A DNA stretch of 64,000 nucleotides from Candidatus Omnitrophota bacterium (GTDB lineage Bacteria > Omnitrophota > Gorgyraeia > 2-01-FULL-45-10). This document shows positions 1 to 30,884 of the stretch, in pieces (positions within the stretch are counted from its first letter, which is position 1; the number at the start of each line of letters is the position of its first letter). The stretch lies in assembly GCA_030695905.1 (NCBI GenBank), contig JAUYOL010000043.1, positions 64,998 through 128,997 on the forward strand, given 5' to 3'. Position numbers and translations under genes: made by a program. The notes beneath the pieces were generated by a model. The model saw only the letters and a list, made by a program, of their open reading frames with translations, did no database searches and had not been told where the DNA came from.

Positions 1-140
1 GTTTTTTTGGATATATGTTTCTGCATGGTCTCGATATTAAAGGTATTCTCTCCAAAATAGCTGGAAACTTTTTTTAGGACTGCTTGTTTTTTCAAATCCA
101 CGCTCTTTACTTTAAATAATGCTTCCTGTCGAATTGCCAT
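1..140 (-). CDS. glutamine synthetase type III (GlnN-like), N-terminal 46 codons, continues beyond window start
   Basis: Minus-strand ATG at 138-140 preceded by an AGGGAG RBS. Translation MAIRQEALFKVKSVDLKKQAVLKKVSSYFGENTFNIETMQKHISKK follows the N-terminal pattern of Bacteroides-type GSIII (S-DYY--VF---M--YLPK), recalled from memory. Confidence 0.5.
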   Translation of the reverse strand, partial: MAIRQEALFKVKSVDLKKQAVLKKVSSYFGENTFNIETMQKHISKK

Positions 141-179
141 AAAACTCCCTTTCTATGTTTTTATTGCGGGTGTCCAAAT

Positions 180-207
180 ATTATAGCACAGGCCCATCCC
201 AATTCAA
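180..207 (-). promoter_or_regulatory. sigma70-like promoter TTGAAT-N16-TGcTATAAT, about 40 nt upstream of the glnN ATG
   Basis: Minus strand reads ttgaattgggatgggcctgtgctataat, i.e. an extended -10 TGnTATAAT with a perfect hexamer. Confidence 0.45.
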
Positions 208-223
208 TCGTTTTTACTTTTAC

Positions 224-269
224 AAAAAAATAACGCCCATCTTGGCAGCTGCTATTTCCAAAATGAACG
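224..269 (-). terminator. terminator-like hairpin plus U-run, either the glnK1 3' terminator or a glnN leader attenuator
   Basis: Minus strand: CGTTCATTTTGG-(12 nt loop)-CCAAGATGGGCG forms a 12-bp stem with 3 G-U pairs, followed by TTATTTTTTTG. Confidence 0.4.
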
Positions 270-293
270 CCTGTGTTCCACTTTAATATTGTA

Positions 294-307
294 GCACTAC
301 TTTGTGC
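294..307 (-). promoter_or_regulatory. conserved hairpin P1: GCAC-AAAGTA-GTGC, 13 nt downstream of motif copy A
   Basis: 4-bp stem with a hexaloop carrying A at position 1 and G at position 4. The same architecture follows motif copies B and C. Confidence 0.45.
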
Positions 308-320
308 GGCATTACTATAC

Positions 321-351
321 ATACAAGTAAAAACGGAGGCGTTTTGGTAAC
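321..351 (-). promoter_or_regulatory. conserved 31-nt motif copy A (minus strand GTTACCAAAA-N8-TTTTTACTTGTAT), upstream of glnN
   Basis: Plus strand ATACAAGTAAAAA-CGGAGGCG-TTTTGGTAAC. The 13- and 10-nt flanks are identical in all three copies and only the central 8 nt vary. Confidence 0.6.
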
Positions 352-692
352 TACCCTATAGCTTCCTGTCCCCTCTCGCCCGTTCTTATCCTTATGCACT
401 CTTCGAGGTTCAGCACAAATATCTTTCCGTCGCCTATATTGCCCGTCTTAGCGGCCTTACTGATTGCGGCTATAGTGGGTTCCACAAATTTCTCATTTAC
501 TGCGATCTCAAGCCTTACTTTTTTTAGCAGATTTCCAGTTTCTTTTCTGCCACGGTATATTTGAGTTATTCCTTTTTGCCTTCCGCATCCCAGGACGTTG
601 GAAACAGTTTTAAGATGTATTTCGCACTTGTCCAGCTCCTGCAGGACATCTTCAAGTTTATGCGGCTGAATAACAGCGACTACTAACTTCAT
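351..692 (-). CDS. glnK: nitrogen regulatory protein P-II (GlnK, copy 1)
   Basis: 113 aa starting [10 protein letters not shown] with the T-loop RGRKE; lies downstream of amtB. Confidence 0.9.
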
Positions 693-703
693 ATTGTCCC
701 CCT

Positions 704-1939
704 TTAGTCGAGCAGTGTATACGCGCTCTCCTCATGCTGTGTTATATCAAGGCCTATTACCTCTTCCTCATCCTCGACTCTTAGACCCATAACAGCATCA
801 AGAACCTTTAGCAGAACAAACGTAATGGCTATAGAATAAACCATTACTGCCAGAACACCAGTTGATTGTATCATAAATTGATTTTGATTTCCAAAAAATA
901 AGCCATTGTTACCAGCCGGGTTAATTATTTTTTGCGCAAGCAATCCTGTTGCCAATGCTCCAACAGCTCCTCCGACACCATGCACGCCGAAAGCGTCGAG
1001 AGAGTCGTCATATGAAAATTTCAGTTTTATAATAGCTACGGCAGTGTAACACAATAATGCCGCCGCGATGCCTATCAATATGGCAGACATGGGAGAGACA
1101 AATCCCGACGCGGGTGTTATAGTGGCCAGGCCCGCGACAGCGCCTGTGGCGCCGCCCAGAAGGGTCGGCTTGCCGGTTGCTCTCCACTCTATAAACATCC
1201 ACGTAAGCGCTGCTGATGAAGCGGCTGCATTAGTAGCTACAAACGCCCATACCGCTAATCCATTTGCCGCGAGAGAGCTTCCTGCGTTAAAGCCGAACCA
1301 ACCGAACCAGAGCAACCCCGCTCCAATGATAGTTAGCGGCAGATTATGCGGAGGCATAGGTTCCCGTCCATAACCCCGCCTCTTACCTAATATAAGAGCA
1401 CACACTAAAGCTGATACTCCGCTTGATACGTGTACTACTATCCCACCGGCAAAATCCAATACTCCCTTATTCCTTAGCCAACCGCCCTCGCCCCATACCC
1501 AATGACATACGGGATCGTATACAAGAGTGGCCCATAACAAGGTAAAGACAACATAAGTTGAAAATTTCATTCTTTCGGCGAATGCTCCGGCTATCAGGCC
1601 GGGCGTTATGACTGCGAACATCATCTGGTACGCCATGAAAAGAAGGTGTGGTATCGTTGATGAGTAAGTAGGGTTGGGCTCTATTCCAACGCCTTTTAAA
1701 CCCATCCATGCCAGGTTTCCTATAAAATGGCCCTGGTCGGGGCCAAAACTTAAACTGTATCCGCATAACATCCATTGAATACTGATAAGGCACAATACGA
1801 AAAAAGATTGCATCATCGTCGCCAAGACATTTTTTCTTCTTACCAACCCGCCGTAAAATAGTGCCAGTCCGGGTATCGTCATAAGCATAACCAGCGCCGT
1901 AGACATCAAAATCCACGCCGTATCGCCAGAATTTATCAT
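704..1939 (-). CDS. amtB: ammonium transporter Amt (copy 1)
   Basis: 411 aa with multiple TM helices and the Amt signature [10 protein letters not shown] ... DFAGG.VVH.SSG. Confidence 0.9.
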
Positions 1940-1985
1940 AATTTATCCTCTCTTGTATTCAACTGCGTAATCAATTGAGCAAATT

Positions 1986-2035
1986 TAAATAAAAAAATAG
2001 CGCGCACCTTGTTGAGCACAACATTGTGCACGCTA
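1986..2035 (-). terminator. amtB1 leader terminator/attenuator: TAGCGTGCAC ... GTGCGCGCTA plus TTTTTTTATTTAAATTT
   Basis: 10-bp stem with 1 mismatch followed by a U-run, about 45 nt before the RBS and ATG. Its 5' arm overlaps hairpin P1 (2016-2029), so the two structures are mutually exclusive. Confidence 0.5.
2016..2029 (-). promoter_or_regulatory. conserved hairpin P1: GCAC-AATGTT-GTGC, 11 nt downstream of motif copy B
   Basis: Hexaloop with A at position 1 and G at position 4. As DNA it is also a GCAC-N6-GTGC palindrome. Confidence 0.45.
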
Positions 2036-2040
2036 TTGCT

Positions 2041-2071
2041 ATACAAGTAAAAAAGATAGATTTTTGGTAAC
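2041..2071 (-). promoter_or_regulatory. conserved 31-nt motif copy B, upstream of amtB1-glnK1
   Basis: Plus strand ATACAAGTAAAAA-AGATAGAT-TTTTGGTAAC. Confidence 0.6.
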
Positions 2072-2158
2072 CAATTTCGCTTTGCGAAATTGGCCCTGAG
2101 CGAGCCATGAAATCCGACTTTATAGGAGGATTTCAGGCGAGCCGAAGGACCTTTCCAC

Positions 2159-2512
2159 TCATCCTATCGCTACGCCATCTCTTTCACCCGTCCTTATTCT
2201 CACGCACTCCGCAAGATCCAATACGAATATCTTCCCATCACCTATATTGCCTGTTTTTGCGCCCTTTGTTATGGCCAATACCGTAGCTTCAACATATTTT
2301 TCATTTACAGCGATCTCGAGCCTTACCTTTTTCAGAAGGTTGCCCGTCTCCTTTTTGCCTCTATATACTTCGGTTTTACCTTTTTGCCTTCCGCACCCCA
2401 GGACATTGCTTACGGTCTTTAGGTGTACCTCCGCCCTATCCAGTTCCTGCAGGACATCTTCAAGTTTATGTGGTTGAATAATCGCGATTATAAGCTTCAT
2501 ATAAAACGTCAC
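2159..2512 (-). CDS. glnK: nitrogen regulatory protein P-II (GlnK, copy 2)
   Basis: 117 aa, about 80% identical to copy 1. Confidence 0.9.
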
Positions 2513-2518
2513 CTCCTC

Positions 2519-3754
2519 TTAGTCTAACAGCGTATATGCACTCTCTTCATGCTGTGTTATATCAAGGCCTATTACCTCTTCCTCATCCTCGACTCTTAGA
2601 CCCATAACAGCATCAAGGACCTTTAATAATATAAAGGTCACGGCCACCGAATATGCCATCGTGGCTAAAACACCGATTGCCTGGGTAGCGAATTGCGCTG
2701 AATTTCCAAAAAACAACCCATTATTTCCAGCGGCATTTACTATCTTTTGCGCAAATAAACCTGTTGCAAGCGCTCCCAACGTTCCTCCTACACCATGAAC
2801 ACCAAAAGCATCGAGTGAGTCATCGTAGCCGAATTTTAATTTGATAACAGCTACAGCTGTATAGCAAACAAGTCCTACCAGAATCCCTATAAGGATCGAC
2901 GACAGAGGTGTTACGAATCCCGCTGCGGGAGTAATTGCAACAAGTCCCGCTACGGCGCCGGTTGCTCCGCCAAGTATTGTTGGTTTTCCGGTAACTTTCC
3001 ACTCTATGATCATCCATGTCAACGCGGCTGCAGCTGCGGCGGTATTTGTGGCGATAAAAGCCGAGACCGCGAGCTCGTTTGCACCTAAAGCGCTGCCGGC
3101 GTTAAATCCAAACCAGCCAAACCACAAAAGGGCCGCGCCGATCAGACATAAAGGAAGATTGTGCGGCGGCATAGGTTCTTGGCCGTAGCCCCTCCTCTTA
3201 CCCATATATAGGGCGCACACGAGCGCCGATATACCGCTTGATACGTGAACTACCGTGCCCCCCGCGAAATCCAAAGCGCCCATATTTCTTAACCATCCGC
3301 CCGCTCCCCACACCCAGTGGCAGACAGGATCATAAACAAGCGTCGCCCATAATAGGGTAAAGACAACGTAGGTTGAAAACTTCATTCTCTCCGCAAAGGC
3401 GCCTGTTATTAGGCCCGGCGTAATTACCGCGAACATCATCTGATAAATCATGAAAAGAAGATGCGGGATAGTTGAGGCATAATCCGGATTGGGGGCCATT
3501 CCTACACCCTTTAAACCCATCCATGCCAGGCTTCCTATAAAATGGCCCTGATCGGGACCAAAGGACAGACTGTACCCAAAAAGCACCCATTGAATACTGA
3601 TAAGGCACAGTACGAAAAAAGACTGCATTATTGTGGCGAGGACGTTTTTACGCCTTACCAGTCCTCCATAAAACAGCGCAAGGCCCGGGAATGTCATTAA
3701 CATGACAAGCGCAGTCGATATTAAGACCCATGCTGTATCGCCTGAATTAATCAT
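2519..3754 (-). CDS. amtB: ammonium transporter Amt (copy 2)
   Basis: 411 aa, about 85% identical to copy 1. GGAGG RBS upstream of the ATG. Confidence 0.9.
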   Translation of the reverse strand: MINSGDTAWVLISTALVMLMTFPGLALFYGGLVRRKNVLATIMQSFFVLCLISIQWVLFGYSLSFGPDQGHFIGSLAWMGLKGVGMAPNPDYASTIPHLLFMIYQMMFAVITPGLITGAFAERMKFSTYVVFTLLWATLVYDPVCHWVWGAGGWLRNMGALDFAGGTVVHVSSGISALVCALYMGKRRGYGQEPMPPHNLPLCLIGAALLWFGWFGFNAGSALGANELAVSAFIATNTAAAAAALTWMIIEWKVTGKPTILGGATGAVAGLVAITPAAGFVTPLSSILIGILVGLVCYTAVAVIKLKFGYDDSLDAFGVHGVGGTLGALATGLFAQKIVNAAGNNGLFFGNSAQFATQAIGVLATMAYSVAVTFILLKVLDAVMGLRVEDEEEVIGLDITQHEESAYTLLD

Positions 3755-3769
3755 AGCTACCTCCTCTTT

Positions 3770-3949
3770 TTATTTTATATCCAGTTTTTCTTTGACCATT
3801 TCTGCGTATACTTTATTTATGCGGCCAGTTTTTAGCCATCTCTCTAATGTCGACACCTGTATATTTATCTTCACAGAAAGATCATGCAGCGTATAGTCAT
3901 TTTCTTCTTTAATTTGCTGTATTTTTTTAATTAATTCTTTATCAATCAT
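3770..3949 (-). CDS. small 59-aa HTH-like protein, not in the ORF track
   Basis: Translates to MIDKELIKKIQQIKEENDYTLHDLSVKINIQVSTLERWLKTGRINKVYAEMVKEKLDIK. The segment TLHDLSVKINIQVSTLERW looks like a helix-turn-helix. Its stop lies 16 nt before the amtB2 start. Confidence 0.4.
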   Translation of the reverse strand: MIDKELIKKIQQIKEENDYTLHDLSVKINIQVSTLERWLKTGRINKVYAEMVKEKLDIK

Positions 3950-3969
3950 TAATGCAGCTTCCTATATTT

Positions 3970-5226
3970 CTAAAAAGTGATGAGCGCGTCCATGCTGAAT
4001 GTCAGCTGATCCCTCTTGCCGGTGCTAAATACTGATCTGTCAGAGTGGTCATAACGAATTTCCGGCCGAAACAACAAGTTGGATAGTACCTTGTCTTTTG
4101 GGAACGGCTTTATTGCTACGCCTGCGGTTACCTCATAGTAGTTGGCGCCGACAGGAGCGGCGTTAGAAAAACCGCTGGCTGCATCTTTATACCACTCCAG
4201 TCGGGTATTCAGAGTAAAATACTGATTAAGCGCATAGCTAGCATATCCGGCCACACCCCCCCACTGCTTGACCTTATCTTGCGATCCGGGGATCTTTGGA
4301 GTCACAACGTAGTCAGTGCCCAGGCCGAGGCTTAATTTATCATTGATCTTATGTGTTATAACTAAATCCATGGCTGTCCACCAGTTGGCGCTGTCACCCG
4401 TAGGAAGATTGTGTCCGACACCGATCGGGAATTCAGGGCCTTCCGTCATCGTAAAGATGGCGGTAGTCTTGTCGCTGGGTGTAAAGGTTACACGGCCCAA
4501 TAGATCCAAAGCATGGTTGGCATCTCGCAGCGACTGGTTCCATCCCAGCGTTGTGCCAAGGTCAAACGTCCATTGCGGGTTCATTATATAGGTGGCCAGA
4601 ACGCCCGTCTGCGTACCCGGCTCAGCATAGAGAAACTGGTAACTATAAGAATAGAATGCCTTGGCAGGATCACCGAAAGCCCCGTAAATATTGGCGCTGA
4701 ATTGTTCAAATCCGGCCAACTCGATCCACTTACCTACTCTAAGCCGTACAGGTATATAAGGAAGAGCCATATCCGCGTAAGCTTGGAGAAGGTCCCATTG
4801 ATTATGACCCGTTTGGGTATCCCACATGCCATTAGAGTGTATGAAGGCAGCGTCCGCGCCAAAGATGCCCTCCATGCGCCCGCCTATGTCAAACTGCTTC
4901 TTGGTCGGATCTACCGTGCGTTCGACGTTCAAGCTGACCTTATTAAGGGTTATGTCGCTTTTGAAGTTGTTATATCCGATGAAGGTCGGCCCTACGCCTT
5001 CCTGAGGCGCTGTAGCGTCATAAAACCAGCCCGCCTGGGTGTATCCATAGATCTTAATGCCGAGCTTATCTAAAGGTTTGGCTAAACCCACCTTGTCCAT
5101 GCCGGTCATAAGCAGCCCTCTCGACGGCGCAGTTAGAACATCCTCATCGGCATATACCCAGGAATGCGCTTGCGAGTACACAAGGAATGATACCAATATT
5201 AAAGTAATTTTTTTAATCAGTTCCAT
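3970..5226 (-). CDS. outer-membrane beta-barrel (porin-like) protein
   Basis: 418 aa with a signal peptide, alternating amphipathic strands and a C-terminal ...ALITF with terminal Phe. It is the first gene of the transcription unit leading into amtB2-glnK2. Confidence 0.55.
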   Translation of the reverse strand: MELIKKITLILVSFLVYSQAHSWVYADEDVLTAPSRGLLMTGMDKVGLAKPLDKLGIKIYGYTQAGWFYDATAPQEGVGPTFIGYNNFKSDITLNKVSLNVERTVDPTKKQFDIGGRMEGIFGADAAFIHSNGMWDTQTGHNQWDLLQAYADMALPYIPVRLRVGKWIELAGFEQFSANIYGAFGDPAKAFYSYSYQFLYAEPGTQTGVLATYIMNPQWTFDLGTTLGWNQSLRDANHALDLLGRVTFTPSDKTTAIFTMTEGPEFPIGVGHNLPTGDSANWWTAMDLVITHKINDKLSLGLGTDYVVTPKIPGSQDKVKQWGGVAGYASYALNQYFTLNTRLEWYKDAASGFSNAAPVGANYYEVTAGVAIKPFPKDKVLSNLLFRPEIRYDHSDRSVFSTGKRDQLTFSMDALITF

Positions 5227-5249
5227 ATTATCTCCTTTTTATGTACCTC

Positions 5250-5295
5250 AAATAAAAAAAGCGTCTTATTTATCCACATGGATCAATAAGACGCC
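5250..5295 (-). terminator. porin leader terminator-like hairpin T2: GGCGTCTTATT-(14 nt)-AATAAGACGC plus TTTTTTTATTT
   Basis: 10-bp perfect stem followed by a U-run, ending about 20 nt before the AAAGGAG RBS. Confidence 0.55.
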
Positions 5296-5304
5296 AATGT
5301 CCTA

Positions 5305-5337
5305 AAATTTAAATAAAAAAGCGCTCTTTTCGAACGC
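5305..5337 (-). terminator. porin leader terminator-like hairpin T1: GCGTTC-GAAAA-GAGCGC plus TTTTTTATTTAAATTTT
   Basis: The 3' flank GCGCTTTTTTATTTAAATTT is nearly identical to the amtB1 leader flank GCGCTATTTTTTTATTTAAATTT. Confidence 0.45.
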
Positions 5338-5349
5338 CTTAGTTTATCA

Positions 5350-5363
5350 ACACAACTATGTGT
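5350..5363 (-). promoter_or_regulatory. conserved hairpin P1: ACAC-ATAGTT-GTGT, 13 nt downstream of motif copy C
   Basis: Same stem-hexaloop architecture, with A at loop position 1 and G at position 4. Confidence 0.45.
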
Positions 5364-5376
5364 CTTAATGCTACTC

Positions 5377-5407
5377 ATACAAGTAAAAAGAGCTTAGTTT
5401 TGGTAAC
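5377..5407 (-). promoter_or_regulatory. conserved 31-nt motif copy C, upstream of the porin-HTH-amtB2-glnK2 unit
   Basis: Plus strand ATACAAGTAAAAA-GAGCTTAG-TTTTGGTAAC. It overlaps the last 4 codons and stop of the sigma factor gene. Confidence 0.6.
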
Positions 5408-5933
5408 TCCTTTTTATCTCGCATCTCAGTTTCTCGCATTTTGCCCTGATCTTTTTCCTTAATTTTATCACGGCGACGTGTGAAATGCCAAGCTTTTCAC
5501 CCATTTCACGCACTGTCAGGCCGTCGGTGCTCATTTTTATAATAGCGATTTCCCTGTCATTAAGGTCATTTTTATAGGCTTCATCATATAATATTTTGTC
5601 CTCAACCTGTTCTTCACAGGACGATTCGTTTAAAGCTAATACTTCTTCGAGCATAGTTCCGTCTTCATCTATGGGGCTTTCGATGCTCTGGATCTTTACT
5701 TTATCCATGGATGTCCTTATGTAATTCTTAAGATGAAAGTAGCAGCCCTGCAATATATAGCTGTCCGTTTTATCATCAAGGATGCCCTTGCCAGACTTGA
5801 TCCATAGATGGATAACCGCCTCCTGGTATAGGTCATCATCGTTAAAGAACGTAAAATGACCGTTGAGCCGATGACTTATCCTTCGGATCGTAGGCGTAAG
5901 TCTGGTTATTAATGTTTCGAAATTATCTTTCAT
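5394..5933 (-). CDS. ECF-type (sigma-24-like) RNA polymerase sigma factor
   Basis: 179 aa. A region-2-like segment DDLYQEAVIHLW...YFHLKNYIRT and a region-4 HTH LTVREMGEKLGISHVAVIKLRKKIRAK. Confidence 0.55.
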   Translation of the reverse strand: MKDNFETLITRLTPTIRRISHRLNGHFTFFNDDDLYQEAVIHLWIKSGKGILDDKTDSYILQGCYFHLKNYIRTSMDKVKIQSIESPIDEDGTMLEEVLALNESSCEEQVEDKILYDEAYKNDLNDREIAIIKMSTDGLTVREMGEKLGISHVAVIKLRKKIRAKCEKLRCEIKRSYQN

Positions 5934-5942
5934 GTTAATAAA

Positions 5943-5981
5943 GAAGCCCTTCGATGCATATCAATGCATACAAAGGGCTTC
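5943..5981 (-). terminator. rho-independent terminator downstream of nadE
   Basis: Minus strand GAAGCCCTT-(21 nt, internally palindromic ATGCAT..ATGCAT)-AAGGGCTTC followed by TTTATT. Confidence 0.55.
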
Positions 5982-6025
5982 TTTGCTCCTTAATATTTTT
6001 ATCTCTTCAGCGAGATAAATTCCTT

Positions 6026-7705
6026 TTAATATTCTTTATACTTGTTCGTTATCGGCATTCTTCTATCTTTGCCGAATGACCTTGGCGTTATTCTTATGCC
6101 CGGCGGTGACTGCCTCCTCTTGTATTCGCTCTTATCGACCATAGCAACAACTCTCAAGACATCGTCTTTACTGCATCCCGAGGATATGATCTTCTTCATA
6201 TCGCGGTCATCTTCAACATACGCTTTGAGTATAGGATCTAATTTGCTGTAAACCGGCAATGTATCGCTGTCTTTCTGATCGGGCTTGAGCTCCGCGGTGG
6301 GCTCTTTTGTTAAGACAGAATCCGGTATTATATGAGAAATAGAATTTCTATATTTGCAAAGCTTATAGACAAGGGTTTTTGGCACATCTTTTATTACCGC
6401 GAAGCCTCCTGCCATGTCTCCATACAGAGTGGCATAGCCGGTGCTCATTTCCGATTTATTTCCCGTAGTAAGGACGAGCCACCCAAATTTATTGGACAGG
6501 GCCATCAATATATTGCCTCTTATGCGCGCCTGCAGATTTTCCTCCGCTATGTTCTTTTCTGATCCAGCGAATAGCGATGATAAAGTAATAAGGTATAATT
6601 TAAATATCTGTTCTATGGAAATAGCCTCATATCTTATGCCTAAGTTACCAGCGACCTCTCTCGCGTCGTTTGCTGATTCTTGTGAAGAATATCGAGACGG
6701 CATGAATATGCCCGTTACGTTATCCTTGCCAAGGGCATCTACTGCCAACGCCGCTACTATGGCGGAGTCTACGCCACCGCTTAATCCAATGGCAACTTTT
6801 TTAAAACCATTCTTGTTTACATAATCCTTTAGTCCCAGCAGGAGCGCTTTATATGCCTCTTCCGCATTTTCTACCATGACAGCAACTTTATTTTTTAATA
6901 CAGAAGGTTTCTTATCTATCTTTTTCTTTATGGTCAATATTTTACTATCAGTTCTTCTGTGCGCAGCGTTTAAAGCAATATCCGCGAAAAGCAGCTCTTC
7001 TTCAAAAGCCTTGGCTCTCGCGATTATCCTGCCCTTATCGTTTGCCACCATACTGCGGCCGTCAAATACAAGTTCATCCTGTCCCCCTACCATATTTACG
7101 TAGGATATAAATATCTTGTTGCTTTTTGCCGCCTTCTGGATAACATTTTCTCTTTCCTTTATCTTTCCGATATGATAAGGAGAAGAGTTTATTGCGATCA
7201 TTACTTGAGCGCCGGCCAAAGCACACATTTTTACGGGCCCGGACTTATGCCATATGTCTTCACATATACTGAGTCCAAATACTATATTATCCATCTTAAA
7301 GATAAAAGGAGATTTACCCTGTTTAAAATAACGGACTTCGTCGAATACCCCATAATTGGGCAATAGCATCTTGTGGTATATACCGAGAATTCTTCCCTTA
7401 TATATTACCGCGGCGGCATTGTAAACATTGGCGCCCTTACTATCCGCGAAGCCGATTATAGCTGCTACATCCCCGACAGACTCGGCTATCTCCTTGAGTA
7501 TGTGCACATTTCGTTCGATAAAATGCGATTTAAAAAGCAGGTCCTCTGGCGGGTATCCGGTTATAGCCAACTCAGGGAAAGAGACTATGTCAGCTCCCGC
7601 ATTTTGAGCCTTATTTATACAGTCCATTATTTTCTCGGCGTTTAGATACAGGTCTCCTACTGTGCAATTAACCTGCGCTAAAGCCAATCGTATTGTTTTC
7701 TTCAT
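6026..7705 (-). CDS. nadE: glutamine-dependent NAD+ synthetase
   Basis: 559 aa. N-terminal CN-hydrolase/nitrilase domain plus a C-terminal NAD synthase domain with the PP-loop GLSGGVDSA. Confidence 0.85.
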   Translation of the reverse strand: MKKTIRLALAQVNCTVGDLYLNAEKIMDCINKAQNAGADIVSFPELAITGYPPEDLLFKSHFIERNVHILKEIAESVGDVAAIIGFADSKGANVYNAAAVIYKGRILGIYHKMLLPNYGVFDEVRYFKQGKSPFIFKMDNIVFGLSICEDIWHKSGPVKMCALAGAQVMIAINSSPYHIGKIKERENVIQKAAKSNKIFISYVNMVGGQDELVFDGRSMVANDKGRIIARAKAFEEELLFADIALNAAHRRTDSKILTIKKKIDKKPSVLKNKVAVMVENAEEAYKALLLGLKDYVNKNGFKKVAIGLSGGVDSAIVAALAVDALGKDNVTGIFMPSRYSSQESANDAREVAGNLGIRYEAISIEQIFKLYLITLSSLFAGSEKNIAEENLQARIRGNILMALSNKFGWLVLTTGNKSEMSTGYATLYGDMAGGFAVIKDVPKTLVYKLCKYRNSISHIIPDSVLTKEPTAELKPDQKDSDTLPVYSKLDPILKAYVEDDRDMKKIISSGCSKDDVLRVVAMVDKSEYKRRQSPPGIRITPRSFGKDRRMPITNKYKEY

Positions 7706-7725
7706 ATTTTAATCTCTTTATCCCC

Positions 7726-7751
7726 ACAAAATAAAAAATGCCTTCCGGCAT
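7726..7751 (-). terminator. nadE leader hairpin ATGCC-GGAA-GGCAT plus TTTTTTATTTTG (attenuator-like)
   Basis: Short 5-bp stem with a U-run, located between the promoter and the RBS. Confidence 0.35.
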
Positions 7752-7789
7752 ACTTTGCCAAAAGACATTCTTTGTCTACTACAATAAGT

Positions 7790-7817
7790 ATTATATCACA
7801 CTTCGGTAGTTTGTCAA
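7790..7817 (-). promoter_or_regulatory. near-consensus sigma70 promoter TTGACA-N16-TGaTATAAT for nadE
   Basis: Minus strand ttgacaaactaccgaagtgtgatataat. Confidence 0.55.
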
Positions 7818-7850
7818 TCAAGTAATTCCTGCTTTTTAATTTCTAACCCG

Positions 7851-8567
7851 TTATTTCTTTTTCATCGAGTCTATCAGGATGATAGCGTCCGCTATATCGC
7901 GCATGGAGCGCCTTGTATCCATACTCTGTCTTTGTATCTTCTTAAACGCTTCCTCTTCGGAAAGGCCCTGCTCTCTCATAAGGATACCCTTGGCCTTTTC
8001 AACGCTCTTCCTGGTTTCTAATTCTTCCTGTATTACCTTAGTCTTTACCATAAGTTCCGCATTTTCAATAACTATCGCAGCCTGGTTTGCCACAGAGAAC
8101 AGTATGTCTATCTCTTCCTTCGTGAACTTGTGCGGTTTTGAAGTATAGTTATTTAATACGCCTATTACCCTGCCCTTAACTGAAAGAGGAACGGATAGTA
8201 GAGATCTTAAGCCTTCCTTCTTTGCTATATCCTTATATTTATATTCCGTCTCTTTGGATATGTCGTATATTGCCTGCGGCTTATTTTCTAAAGCGGCCTT
8301 TCCGGCTATCCCTTCTCCTATATGCAGCGGCGGTTTTTTGTTGTATGTTTCGCTCATAGATTGAGTCGCTTTAAGCACAAGCGTTTTTGTCTTATCATCC
8401 ACCAGGCTTAAAGAGCATATCTTGGAATTCATGATCTCCGCGGTAACCGTTACGATAAGTTTTAGAATATCTTCCAGGTAGAGGTTTGAGGTAATAGTTC
8501 TGCTGACCTTGGAGATTGCCTCTAAGCGTTTCGCGTGAGATACTGCCCTGCTGTCCTTTTTTGCCAT
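7851..8567 (-). CDS. GAF-ANTAR regulatory protein (RNA-binding antiterminator family)
   Basis: 238 aa. N-terminal GAF-like region and a C-terminal ANTAR-like segment EKAKGILMREQGLSEEEAFKKIQRQSMDTRRSMRDIADAII. Confidence 0.6.
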   Translation of the reverse strand: MAKKDSRAVSHAKRLEAISKVSRTITSNLYLEDILKLIVTVTAEIMNSKICSLSLVDDKTKTLVLKATQSMSETYNKKPPLHIGEGIAGKAALENKPQAIYDISKETEYKYKDIAKKEGLRSLLSVPLSVKGRVIGVLNNYTSKPHKFTKEEIDILFSVANQAAIVIENAELMVKTKVIQEELETRKSVEKAKGILMREQGLSEEEAFKKIQRQSMDTRRSMRDIADAIILIDSMKKK

Positions 8568-8571
8568 TTGG

Positions 8572-9534
8572 TTATCTCTTTCCTTCCGATTTAGGGGCTA
8601 TGTTCGTCCCGAGAAATTTCGTGTCAGAGTCTTTGGGCATTTCTTGTATCCAGCCATTATTTAACCCCAACTTGTGCGCTTCGTCAACTTTTATTTTGTA
8701 CTCCTCCTCCAGTATACCGCAAGACAGCTCTTTAAAATCACATGCTTTATAGGTCGGATAGTATTGGCTCATTATACTCAAGTAGGCATCTTTAGAGATG
8801 TTTTCCTTGATAAATTTTAAACTTTCGGTAGTTCCAGAAATATTGTGCGGCAATACCAGAAGCCTTATTATGAGGCCTTTTATCGCAATATCATCGTCGT
8901 CCAAAATAACGTTTCCTGCCTGTCTATACATCTCCTTCACCGCTGTCCTATCGCGTTCAACGTAATCGGGAGCATCGGAATACAGCTTGGCCATCCTGTT
9001 ATCCGAATAGCGCATATCAGGCAAATATATGTCGATAATGCCATCAAGTAGACGTATAGTGTCTGTAAGGTCATAACCGCTTGTATTATATACGATGGGT
9101 ATCGAAAGGCCGTTATTGACGGCTATTTCCAACGCCATCAATATCTGAGGCACATAATGCGTAGGATTGACCAGGTTTATATTATGACAGCCCGCTTGCT
9201 GCAGTTCTAACATTATCGAGGCAAGTTTCTCTATCGATATTTCGTCGCCTCCATCAAGCTGGCTGAATATGTAGTTCTGGCAGTATGCGCATTTCATATT
9301 ACAGCGCGAGAAGAATATCGTTCCGGAGCCTTTAGAGCCGGATAGCGCGGGTTCCTCGCCGTGGTGGGCCATGTAACTGTATATAACGGGATTGTATGGC
9401 GCCCTGCAATAACCGAGTTTGCCCGCGAACCTATTTACTTTGCACCGGCGCGGACATATTGCGCATTTACTTAAAGAGTCTTTCAGCAAGTCAAGCGCAA
9501 TACGCACTTTCTTTAATTTATCATCTTTATTCAT
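8572..9534 (-). CDS. radical SAM enzyme, PFL-activase-like (AmmeMemoRadiSam-type)
   Basis: 320 aa. CNMKCAYCQN is a CxxxCxxC motif, and an N-terminal Cys cluster CAICPRRC...C is also present. Confidence 0.6.
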   Translation of the reverse strand: MNKDDKLKKVRIALDLLKDSLSKCAICPRRCKVNRFAGKLGYCRAPYNPVIYSYMAHHGEEPALSGSKGSGTIFFSRCNMKCAYCQNYIFSQLDGGDEISIEKLASIMLELQQAGCHNINLVNPTHYVPQILMALEIAVNNGLSIPIVYNTSGYDLTDTIRLLDGIIDIYLPDMRYSDNRMAKLYSDAPDYVERDRTAVKEMYRQAGNVILDDDDIAIKGLIIRLLVLPHNISGTTESLKFIKENISKDAYLSIMSQYYPTYKACDFKELSCGILEEEYKIKVDEAHKLGLNNGWIQEMPKDSDTKFLGTNIAPKSEGKR

Positions 9535-29374: not shown

Positions 29375-30884
29375 GTTTTTCCCTCGCAAGCATTTCACTT
29401 ATATCTTTTCTCTTTATGACTTCTAAAAACGCCTGTACTACTTTTGGATCAAATTGTTTTCCTGAGCTGTTGCGGATCTCTTCGGCCGCCGCGTTTATGG
29501 ATTTAGGCGTCCTGTAAGGCTTTTTCGTTATCATGGCCTCAAAAGCGCTCACTACCGCCATTATCCTGGCGCCTACAGGGATCTGGTCTTTCTTCAGTCC
29601 TTTGGGATAGCCTGTGCCGTCGTAGTTTTCATGGTGATGGAGTATTATAGGGATTATCGACTTTAATGCCTTTATCGGTTTTAATATTTCTGCGCCTATT
29701 ATCGGATGTTCTTTTACCAGATTATACTGTTTTTCGGTGAGCTTCGCGGGTTTTTTAAGGACTTCTTCGGGCACGATCAGCTGCCCCGCGTCATGCAACA
29801 GTATCGAGTATTCTATGCTCTTGAGCTCATATCCGGAAAGGTGTAATTTTTGTCCGACCAGCGTCGTTATCCTTAAAAATGAAGCCCGCGGCATATACTG
29901 GCCGCTTTTGCGCGTGCTCACTATTGCCGCAAGGGACTTTATCATTCCAAATGTTAATTTCTCCTGCTCCTTATATAGATGCGCGTTCTTTATCGCTATT
30001 ACCGCCTGCTCGGCAAGGGTGGACATTATCTCCTGGTCGAATTGCGTGAAGGGTTTGCCGTCTATCTTGTCATATAGCGTTATAACACCGATGACATCCT
30101 CGTCTATCAAAGGTGTGGCCAGGTGATTTTTGTCGCGTATCGGCCTGCCGAATTTCGCGGCTTTGCCCGGCGACCAGCGGCCTATGCGCACCTTCTTAAG
30201 CTTTGATTTAGTTTCTCTCAAGTCTACAGTGGCCTTCGGCAGCAGCAGTTTTTTGGTGGAATCTACAAGTTTTATGGAACATCTGTTGGCCCTTATTACT
30301 TGCAATGAAAGTCTCGCCACTCGAGGCAGAAGCTCGTTCATATCAAGGGTAGAGCCTATAAGCCTGTGCACCGTGTGGACCGTCGATAACGCTATAGCGC
30401 GCGGACGTATCGTCTCATACAATTTGGATAGCTCAAGTTCTTTCTGCACTTCTTTTACTATAGTATCCGTAAAAGCGGCGAAGATGTCCATTATCTCGTC
30501 GGAGACATCTTTTTTGGTATAACATGCGCCTATGTAGCCGTATAGTTTGTCGCCCTGCGAAATAGGATAGATGAATCCGCGCAGGCCCTCTATGCATTCA
30601 AACCGCACCATCCTTTTCTCCAGGCCGGCCTTTTCCACCATATCTTCCAACATCCTGACGCAGCTGGCGCCTTTTTGGAAATCAGGTTTTTTAAGAAATG
30701 GGCATGTGTTTAAGACGAGTTTCTTTATAGACGCCGCTGAAGGATGCGGCTCCTCTATGAGCCACCACATAGCGCTCTTTAGGCATGAGCCGAAACATTC
30801 TTCTTCTTTTTTCAGGCTTACGCTCTTCTTCAGCTTGTCAAAAAGTTCCTGTTGGTATTCCCTGTCTGTAAATTCCTGCTTCAT
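29361..30884 (-). CDS. GAF domain - HD-GYP phosphodiesterase (c-di-GMP hydrolysis)
   Basis: HD...HHENYDGTGYP signature. Confidence 0.75.
   Translation of the reverse strand: MKQEFTDREYQQELFDKLKKSVSLKKEEECFGSCLKSAMWWLIEEPHPSAASIKKLVLNTCPFLKKPDFQKGASCVRMLEDMVEKAGLEKRMVRFECIEGLRGFIYPISQGDKLYGYIGACYTKKDVSDEIMDIFAAFTDTIVKEVQKELELSKLYETIRPRAIALSTVHTVHRLIGSTLDMNELLPRVARLSLQVIRANRCSIKLVDSTKKLLLPKATVDLRETKSKLKKVRIGRWSPGKAAKFGRPIRDKNHLATPLIDEDVIGVITLYDKIDGKPFTQFDQEIMSTLAEQAVIAIKNAHLYKEQEKLTFGMIKSLAAIVSTRKSGQYMPRASFLRITTLVGQKLHLSGYELKSIEYSILLHDAGQLIVPEEVLKKPAKLTEKQYNLVKEHPIIGAEILKPIKALKSIIPIILHHHENYDGTGYPKGLKKDQIPVGARIMAVVSAFEAMITKKPYRTPKSINAAAEEIRNSSGKQFDPKVVQAFLEVIKRKDISEMLAREKHGKR

Follow-up and report, generated by a model that had tools for sequence, protein, structure and literature searches.

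How can RNA polymerase reach an operon whose leader carries two consecutive terminator-like hairpins? This question is raised by a 64,000-nucleotide stretch of DNA from a Candidatus Omnitrophota bacterium, hereafter the window, in which such a leader (positions 5393-5227) precedes an operon comprising the gene of a BBP2-family outer-membrane porin, a small open reading frame (ORF), amtB2 and glnK2. All window genes relevant here lie on the minus strand and are ordered, from 5' to 3', as a radical-SAM gene, a GAF-ANTAR gene, nadE (7705-6026), a gene for a sigma factor of the extracytoplasmic function (ECF) type (ORF179), the leader, the porin gene, an ORF of 59 amino acids, amtB2 and glnK2, followed by a second leader with amtB1 and glnK1 and a third leader with the start of glnN, which encodes a type III glutamine synthetase. 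The evidence described here makes it probable, as far as sequence can tell, that the leader is an antitermination switch with two ANTAR-gated terminators, which the GAF-ANTAR protein would relieve by stabilising two small hairpins, P2 and P2'.

Tandem terminators in the leader of the porin operon

The first hairpin, T1 (5304-5340), resembles an intrinsic terminator: a stem spanning 5338-5320 is formed by GGCGUUC (5338-5332) and GAGCGCU (5326-5320) around the loop GAAAA and is followed by U6 and AUUUAAAUUUU to 5304, which gives the tail U6AUUUAAAUUUU. A terminator scan placed it at 5340-5318 with 9 pairs, and overall it comprises 7-9 pairs plus U6 with an energy of -10.4 kcal/mol. The second hairpin, T2 (5250-5295), is a strong one of -19.1 kcal/mol; its 5' arm GGCGUCUUAUU, a G/A mismatch, an AUCC-AUGU-GGAU apex and its 3' arm AAUAAGACGC (5295-5261) are followed by U7AUUU (5260-5250), so that 10 + 4 pairs precede U7. 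The initial annotation had described the T2 apex as a loop, ATCCA-TG-TGGAT, which is corrected here to an apical stem of 4 bp with a loop of 4 nt. Its claim of two consecutive terminator-like hairpins was confirmed by the sequence, the energies, the fold of the whole leader (z = -4.67 against dinucleotide shuffles) and the conservation described below.

In both T1 and T2, a G+C-rich stem-loop stands directly before a U-run on the transcribed strand. On the plus strand no T-run follows either hairpin, hence both are oriented with the genes. A generic terminator scan is by itself not significant, as it found 17 candidates in 12 kb where 11 were expected. Both terminators lie, as annotated initially, between copy C of a promoter-like motif (5378-5407, GTTACCAAAA-N8-TTTTTACTTGTA) with its hairpin (5364-5349) and the ribosome-binding site AAAGGAG of the porin gene, which together with the ATG covers 5224-5239 (GGAG 5235-5232, ATG 5226). 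Just 28 nt separate the U-run of T2 from the porin ATG, and as this gap leaves no room for a promoter, transcription of the porin gene must pass T1 and T2.

The initial annotation had also pointed to a 22-nt flank common to the porin and amtB1 leaders. This likeness is real, but it is inexact, a near match with indels: the porin leader reads GCGC-U6-AUUUAAAUUU and the amtB1 leader GCGCUA-U7-AUUUAAAUUU, which differ by an A and in the length of the U-run. The flank is a similar U-rich terminator tail in both leaders and carries little information alone.

Hexaloop hairpins overlapping the terminators

Three small hairpins with loops of six nucleotides accompany the terminators. P1 (5349-5364) reads (G)ACAC-AUAGUU-GUGU(U), with 4-5 bp, ACAC to GUGU occupying 5363-5350, and a hexaloop carrying A at position 1 (A1) and G at position 4 (G4). 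It is separated by a linker of 5 nt from P2 (5333-5344), a candidate antiterminator hairpin of 3 bp with the sequence AAC-UAAGGC-GUU. The 3' part of its loop and its 3' arm (GGCGUU) are at the same time the 5' arm of T1. A second candidate antiterminator hairpin, P2' (5289-5302; GGAC-AUUGGC-GUCU, 4 bp), follows T1, and its GGCGUCU forms the 5' arm of T2. Because GGCGUU is common to P2 and T1 and GGCGUCU to P2' and T2, each terminator has a mutually exclusive alternative, and both overlaps are kept in all aligned relatives. In generalised form, P2 reads AAC-NNNGGC-GUU and P2' reads GAC-NNNGGC-GUC. Taken alone, P2 and P2' have energies of +0.7 and -3.0 kcal/mol. They are weak compared with T1 and T2, which suggests that termination is the default and that something, a protein, must stabilise the small hairpins.

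G4 is present in all three loops of the window and A1 in P1 (AUAGUU) and P2' (AUUGGC), while the P2 loop (UAAGGC) begins with U. Counting loop composition in relatives without constraining the loops, we found G4 in P1 in 30/30 cases; in P2, A1 in 64 and G4 in 70 of 75 loops, then G and C; and in P2', G4 in 39 of 41 loops and a purine at position 1 likewise in 39 (G in 28, A in 11). Across 30 relatives, pairing in the stems of P1 and P2 reaches 99%. Pairing in P2 and P2' is consistent in 98.9% of cells, and the fourth pair of P2', whose 5' base precedes GAC and lies outside the terminator, is paired in 83% of 41 leaders.

Covariation was observed for P1. In a set anchored on P2 rather than on P1, its middle pair shows a compensatory change from AU to GC in 4/30 sequences from at least two independent lineages, its outer pair occurs as AU, GU, UA or GC, and the covariation of P1 exceeded that of all 500 shuffles; in an alignment designated A5, the P1 stem is 99% paired and G4 of its loop is invariant. 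A first MAFFT alignment (A3) was uninformative on covariation of P2 and P2', because their cores are invariant and were partly fixed by the selection patterns, and sets anchored on other features were used instead. G-U pairs are frequent, with 10/30 at the outer pair of P1 and 12-15/30 at pairs of T1, which together with the strict strand specificity argues for recognition of RNA rather than DNA.

Conservation of the leader in Omnitrophota

Related loci, labelled with an L and a number, were collected by a scan with a porin profile, taking one genome per species (70 loci), and by a metagenome scan with the pattern GTTACC-N15-TTACTTGTA (120 more). The full tandem order of P1, P2/T1 and P2'/T2 was found in 29 leaders, each on a different contig of Omnitrophota. 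Both terminators have been retained in 27-28 related leaders, with mean energies of -12.5 and -18.7 kcal/mol and z values of about -5.3, even though the apical sequences differ; the pairs of the terminator state are 94.6-96.9% paired, compared with 26-54% after sliding of the partners.

A covariance model of the P1-P2-T1 unit, termed R1, was run unfiltered over the whole window with a cut-off of E = 0.05 and gave only four matches, all of them leader units of nitrogen genes. The match to the porin T1 unit (5363-5314, 52.7 bits) is one by construction; the others are the leaders of glnN (307-226, E = 3.7e-5) and amtB1 (2029-1993, E = 9e-4) and the P2'-T2 unit (5310-5254, E = 0.035), which was aligned as a copy of the P2-T1 unit lacking P1. 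In 653 kb of porin loci from many phyla, R1 found 25 matches, all from Omnitrophota and all on the gene strand, and none in the porin loci of other phyla within the 653 kb scanned. A leader terminator is entirely absent from about 45 porin loci of Aminicenantes, Verrucomicrobia, Binatia, delta-proteobacteria and others.

As judged from these genome sequences, the terminator placement is conserved in related genomes and lineage specific. It recurs in both orthologous and paralogous leaders of related Omnitrophota, a comparison which the initial annotation had suggested for the leaders of orthologous operons. Its proposal that leader terminators on nitrogen genes imply attenuation is thus supported by the conserved placement, by the lack of promoter space after T2 and by the 5' arms that terminators and small hairpins share.

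The GAF-ANTAR protein as candidate antiterminator

At 7851-8567, 2.5 kb upstream of the porin leader, the window has its sole ANTAR gene, which encodes a candidate antiterminator protein with a GAF domain (Pfam GAF_2, E = 3.5e-22) and an ANTAR domain (E = 8.7e-22). The order ANTAR gene, nadE, sigma gene, leader and transporter is syntenic in 11 related loci, whose ANTAR homologues are 55-79% identical. More than 120 clusters of such proteins, at 77-94% identity, carry no label other than GAF and ANTAR domain-containing protein of Omnitrophota. The GAF domain of the regulator is closest to those of PtsP and NifA, which are sensors of nitrogen status; this likeness would fit nitrogen sensing by the GAF-ANTAR protein and serves as a lead. 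A second GAF-like region of the window (29976-30389, minus strand) shares 31% identity with the GAF portion of this regulator and has no ANTAR domain.

Substrates of ANTAR proteins consist of two hairpins joined by a variable linker; each has a stem of at least 3 bp and a hexaloop with A1 and G4, and the second overlaps a terminator. In Enterococcus faecalis the linker measures 5-12 nt (PMC3369931). Such sites are mostly found upstream of nitrogen genes, including those for P-II proteins, ammonium transporters and glutamine synthetase (Ramesh et al. 2012, PMC3369931). The porin leader shows stem-loops of at least 3 bp, G4, overlap with the terminators and a short linker, and an ANTAR protein is encoded in the genome. 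In the short-linker class of leaders the distance between P1 and P2 is 2-14 nt. From A1 the leader departs, with U1 in P2 of the window and G1 in most P2' loops of relatives. It very probably works like, and belongs to, the ANTAR class as a structural variant, and the evidence points to ANTAR-type, protein-mediated antitermination and not to a riboswitch or a leader peptide. We infer that the GAF-ANTAR protein binds the P1, P2 and P2' RNAs and that its GAF domain senses nitrogen status.

The following sequence of events can be proposed. Transcription of the porin-amtB2-glnK2 operon would start just past the GTTACC-N15-TTACTTGTA element, giving a leader of about 135 nt. As long as the regulator is inactive, the moderate terminator T1 would stop most polymerases and the strong terminator T2 the rest. 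When nitrogen becomes limiting, the GAF-ANTAR protein would bind the hexaloops of P1 and P2 on the nascent RNA and thereby block T1; P2' would then be bound, the 5' arm of T2 withheld, and RNA polymerase could read into the operon. As read-through would be the product of two events, the genes for ammonium entry would have a low basal level and a steep response. The same protein, acting on hairpins of this kind, would also gate the single terminators of amtB1, glnN and probably nadE and thus govern a regulon of nitrogen assimilation.

Related leaders and the nitrogen regulon

The amtB1 leader (1991-2071) carries motif copy B and a P1 hairpin GCAC-AAUGUU-GUGC (2029-2016), which is nested in a terminator (2037-1996) followed by U7; this design was also found in locus L167. 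The glnN leader (222-351) carries motif copy A, P1 (307-294) and P2 (GAAC-ACAGGC-GUUC, 278-265), which overlaps a terminator (271-232) followed by U7. For glnN and nadE, the initial annotation had placed a hairpin with a U-run immediately before the ribosome-binding site. This holds for nadE, where the element (7751-7733) is close to that site, but not for glnN, whose terminator with its U-run (271-224) is about 70 nt away from it with a sigma70-like promoter in between. The latter (207-180, minus strand) reads TTGAAT-16-TATAAT with a TG extension, and its position downstream of the terminator suggests that glnN may have a constitutive promoter besides the gated one.

The nadE leader (7733-7817) begins with a perfect sigma70 promoter (7817-7790), which is followed by two hairpins with AAAG loops (7776-7764 and 7759-7747), the second of which overlaps a terminator (7751-7738) followed by U6. 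The nadE leaders of loci L041 and L045 contain a P1 hairpin UGUU-AAUGAN-GACA, a hairpin of the P2' type (GGAC-UCNGGC-GUCC) and a T2-type terminator with an AUCC...GGAU apex. These leaders use the P2'/T2-type unit with a P1 of their own, which suggests that the P2'/T2 module is a working unit of the system in its own right. The nadE leader of the window probably belongs to the same family, given the orthologous leaders and the geometry of the overlap.

The first genes after leaders of this kind encode the porin, AmtB, P-II, a fusion of an amino-acid permease with P-II, glutamine synthetases of types I and III and two unknown proteins of about 265 and 307 amino acids. Tandem leaders precede 5/10 porin genes, 7/27 amtB genes, 3/6 permease-P-II genes and 5/9 genes of the 265-residue protein. 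The 28 glutamine synthetase genes all lack a tandem leader and have a single, longer terminator instead. This split between transport and P-II genes on the one hand and all 28 glutamine synthetase genes examined on the other suggests selection for a tighter shut-off of ammonium entry.

The permease of about 620 amino acids with a C-terminal P-II domain is often encoded behind tandem leaders (L012:2906-4774, L034:2640-4493, L054:2688-4562 and L179:2161-4029). The protein of about 265 amino acids is among the commonest first genes after such leaders (L079:8114-8911, L104:2534-3340, L106, L151, L172 and others); it has no match in Pfam or NCBIfam and is probably an unrecognised component of nitrogen uptake. 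Some type III glutamine synthetase leaders lack P1 and have P2 with its terminator 7 nt past the motif (L081, L088 at 3149, L108, L116 at 4018, L121 and L164 at 7280). Such transcripts may carry a single-hexaloop site right at their 5' end.

Alternative explanations

Several observations weigh against an ANTAR-gated switch. The P2 loop of the window begins with U, and the P2' loops mostly begin with G (28/41), contrary to the A1 rule. P2' has no adjacent partner hairpin, whereas the classical model needs two; a partnerless P2' is plausible because a single hexaloop, contacted by an ANTAR dimer, has been redefined as the minimal binding unit (Walshe et al. 2022, PMC8934654). The sequences of P2 and P2' hardly vary, so that their pairing fits the data but is unproven by covariation. 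Many glutamine synthetase leaders have P1-P2 linkers of 20-45 nt, far over the range known for EutV, the window nadE leader has loops of 7 nt and scores poorly with R1 (8.1 bits), and no Rfam family matched the leader RNA: in the window there was no match at gathering thresholds, and within positions 1-9000 only chance-level ones (E > 3).

The apical stem of T2 (5272-5283, minus strand) keeps the sequence AUCC-N4-7-GGAU in most copies, while a terminator requires pairing only. It was found in T2 of L054, L083, L084, L085, L094, L131, L160 and L170, and also in the two orthologous nadE leaders described above. The conservation of this apex is not explained by the ANTAR model.

The hexaloops of regulated terminators could also be the target of a different factor and not of the GAF-ANTAR protein encoded nearby, either another RNA-binding protein or a metabolite or ion acting on the RNA. 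The G at the beginning of the P2' loops, the very long linkers of some leaders and the T2 apex would speak for such a factor. However, hairpins of 3-5 bp with hexaloops are too small for a ligand pocket, no riboswitch of Rfam was matched, the loop signature and the overlap with the terminators fit the definition of ANTAR sites (PMC3369931), and the only ANTAR-domain gene of the window adjoins these leaders and is syntenic with them. We regard a different factor as unlikely. T1 and T2 might not be regulated at all and just terminate the upstream nadE/sigma transcript, the porin gene being transcribed by leak-through or from an unrecognised start. They indeed lie 54-144 nt past the stop codon of ORF179 (5394), where they would end any upstream read-through, and tandem terminators are common after genes. 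This reading is quite improbable: no promoter would fit after T2, a conserved promoter-like motif lies between ORF179 and T1, identical P1-P2-terminator units stand before amtB1 and glnN, where the upstream gene is glnK, the units are present in contigs without a preceding sigma gene, and a plain terminator does not account for the AAC and GAC conserved on the 5' side of each terminator.

Palindromes to which proteins bind in DNA may likewise consist of inverted repeats with conserved half-sites, and palindromes co-vary too; the CAC-N6-GTG and GAC-N6-GTC repeats could accordingly be read as operators of a transcription factor, the terminator-like hairpins being incidental. We consider this very improbable: the frequent G-U wobbles in P1 and T1 break DNA palindromes but not RNA helices, position 4 of the loops is conserved asymmetrically, all units lie on the sense strand of the downstream gene, and a U-run ends every unit. 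Ribosome-mediated attenuation by a leader peptide, as in trp or his operons, would find its start codon in an ATG inside TTGTATGAG, which in the window opens a frame of 33 codons across P1 and T1 into T2. This ATG has no Shine-Dalgarno sequence, however, and orthologous leaders lack it, having TTGTAC, TTGTAG, TTGTAA or TTGTAT and then other bases; as the leaders contain no conserved small ORF either, we give this explanation almost no credence. A relay by pairing of the 3' arm of T1, once freed, with the T2 5' arm was rejected, since by inspection only about 3 bp are possible and the constrained fold lacks such a helix. CsrA-type GGA loops, triplet repeats of TRAP and HutP and ribonucleic antiterminator (RAT) elements were likewise rejected by inspection, as the loops do not fit these motifs.

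Promoter-like motif and ECF-type sigma factor

The exact 30-nt motif occurs in three copies in the window, each upstream of a nitrogen gene (351-322, 2071-2042 and 5407-5378). Related contigs contain 161 instances, about 119 of which are followed by hairpin and terminator units; the other 42 are chance matches without units and provide an internal negative control, with CAC-N6-GTG found within 80 nt in just 1/42. The extended consensus of about 118 instances, aaaa...gGTTACCAaaa-N7-tTttTTACTTGTAt...tg.aa, contains TTAC in both halves, 21 nt apart, and differs from the patterns of sigma70 and sigma54 promoters and from the usual ECF one (AAC...CGT). A perfect 10-bp hairpin, CCAAUUUCGC-AAA-GCGAAAUUGG (2073-2095, minus strand), ends exactly at motif copy B.

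ORF179 (5394-5933), a gene of 179 codons directly upstream of the leader, was assigned to the sigma factors by NCBIfam TIGR02937 (53.2 bits, cut-off 42.9), and its family profile matches sigma factors in the Protein Data Bank. Its stop codon lies inside motif copy C. In most of 33 loci, sigma homologues end 0-25 nt from the motif, and sigma gene, motif, tandem leader and transporter form a conserved module (L001, L004, L054, L083, L084 and about 30 more). A strong hairpin with a weak U tail, GAAGCCCUU...AAGGGCUUC, is located between nadE and the sigma gene (5945-5985, minus strand). The GTTACC-N15-TTACTTGTA element presumably acts as a promoter, and from their linkage the ORF179 sigma factor is possibly the protein that reads it. 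If so, the sigma factor and the ANTAR-gated nadE-sigma operon may form a feed-forward loop.

A more far-reaching interpretation is rather doubtful at present and offered as speculation. According to it, the leader would be an ANTAR attenuator with three hexaloops and two checkpoints, the second acting through a single, partnerless hexaloop with purine-1 and G4 that arose perhaps by duplication of a P2-terminator unit. It would be part of a feed-forward AND gate, in which the ANTAR protein frees the nadE/ECF-sigma operon from its terminator, the sigma factor drives GTTACC-N15-TTACTTGTA promoters and the ANTAR protein again frees each leader. Such a circuit could be the main nitrogen control of much of Omnitrophota instead of NtrBC/sigma54, GlnR or NtcA, with the GAF domain reading 2-oxoglutarate or glutamine directly.

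Porin and neighbouring genes

The porin gene (3970-5226), the first of its operon, encodes a protein of the BBP2 family (Pfam BBP2, E = 1.4e-51) with a 100% match to a protein from a metagenome-assembled genome of Candidatus Omnitrophota. It is 61-78% identical across Omnitrophota, Aminicenantes, Verrucomicrobia, Binatia, Thermodesulfobacteriota, Acidobacteriota and others (loci L001-L070) and 55% identical in an Ignavibacteriaceae genome. Its gene has amtB and glnK as neighbours, both in the window and in related loci of Omnitrophota. Such conservation is unusual for an outer-membrane protein and suggests a porin dedicated to ammonium or ammonia, or else horizontal transfer. Two contigs binned as archaeal, L005 (labelled Methanothrix sp.) and L057 (labelled Methanoperedens sp.), contain the bacterial porin, and L005 also has the Omnitrophota promoter motif and a match to R1; both contigs are most likely misbinned.

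The window contains two adjacent amtB-glnK pairs on the minus strand (amtB at 704-1939 and 2519-3754, glnK at 351-692 and 2159-2512). The two AmtB copies are 84% identical, and the downstream pair is preceded by a motif of its own and by a leader of different design. For the 59-residue ORF between porin and amtB2 (3770-3949, minus strand), no homologue was found in any fetched locus, and its family matches are at chance level only.

Significance and comparison with known systems

The results describe a phylum-specific regulon of ammonium uptake and assimilation, which is well supported, in Omnitrophota, a group without cultured members, and they provide an RNA model and a promoter-like signature that can be used for metagenome annotation. 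They suggest a function for the abundant, uncharacterised GAF-ANTAR architecture and a naturally occurring case in which one leader has two ANTAR-gated terminators, the second with a single hexaloop, which bears on the revision of the minimal site to one hexaloop. Together with the split within the regulon between tandem terminators for transport and P-II genes and single ones for glutamine synthetase, this is a solid annotation result and a useful model system. ANTAR antitermination of nitrogen genes is already known in several phyla, and the principle is not new. A review from 2025 lists the GAF-ANTAR architecture with no characterised example and describes no tandem leader terminators (PMC12591593); the ANTAR literature cited here describes neither the tandem leader with three hexaloops nor the GAF sensor nor the Omnitrophota setting.

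The closest structural parallel is offered by EutV of Enterococcus faecalis, with which the porin leader shares stems of at least 3 bp, hexaloops with G4 and, in P1 and P2' of the window, A1, a second hairpin in the 5' arm of the terminator, a linker of 5 nt within the range of 5-12 nt, an ANTAR protein encoded nearby and nitrogen-related targets. In contrast to EutV, the regulator has a GAF sensor instead of a phospho-receiver, three hexaloops serve two serial terminators, P2' is partnerless and usually has G1, the loops end with GGC, and some leaders of the regulon have very long linkers or one hairpin. GnfR, an ANTAR regulator of Geobacter, antiterminates nif and glnK-amtB leaders through CAGGCAANGGCGCC sequences overlapping their terminators (Ueki and Lovley 2010, PMC2995071). 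Like the system proposed here, GnfK/GnfR of Geobacter sulfurreducens places an ANTAR regulator on nitrogen genes including glnK-amtB by means of leader terminators and combines a dedicated promoter system with antitermination on the same genes. The GnfR site CAGGCAANGGCGCC can be written as GGC-AANGGC-GCC and is strikingly like P2 (AAC-ANNGGC-GUU). GnfR differs in being a response regulator activated by a kinase, in its sigma54/GnfM-dependent promoters, in the single terminators described for it and in its phylum.

NasR/nasF of Klebsiella oxytoca and AmiR/amiE of Pseudomonas aeruginosa likewise have a sensor fused to or paired with ANTAR and, before the terminator of the leader, a hairpin whose hexaloop needs A1 and G4 (as summarised in PMC3369931). 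They differ by having one terminator per leader and NIT or AmiC sensors, which respond to nitrate or amides and not to general nitrogen status. Tandem attenuators occur as two complete thiamine pyrophosphate (TPP) riboswitches in series in Bacillus anthracis and as multiple T-boxes before thrZ. Like these, the porin leader has two checkpoints, at which the probabilities of read-through multiply and the response becomes sharper. In riboswitches and T-boxes, however, the RNA itself senses the ligand or tRNA, whereas here a protein would do the sensing, and the second unit repeats the first in truncated form.

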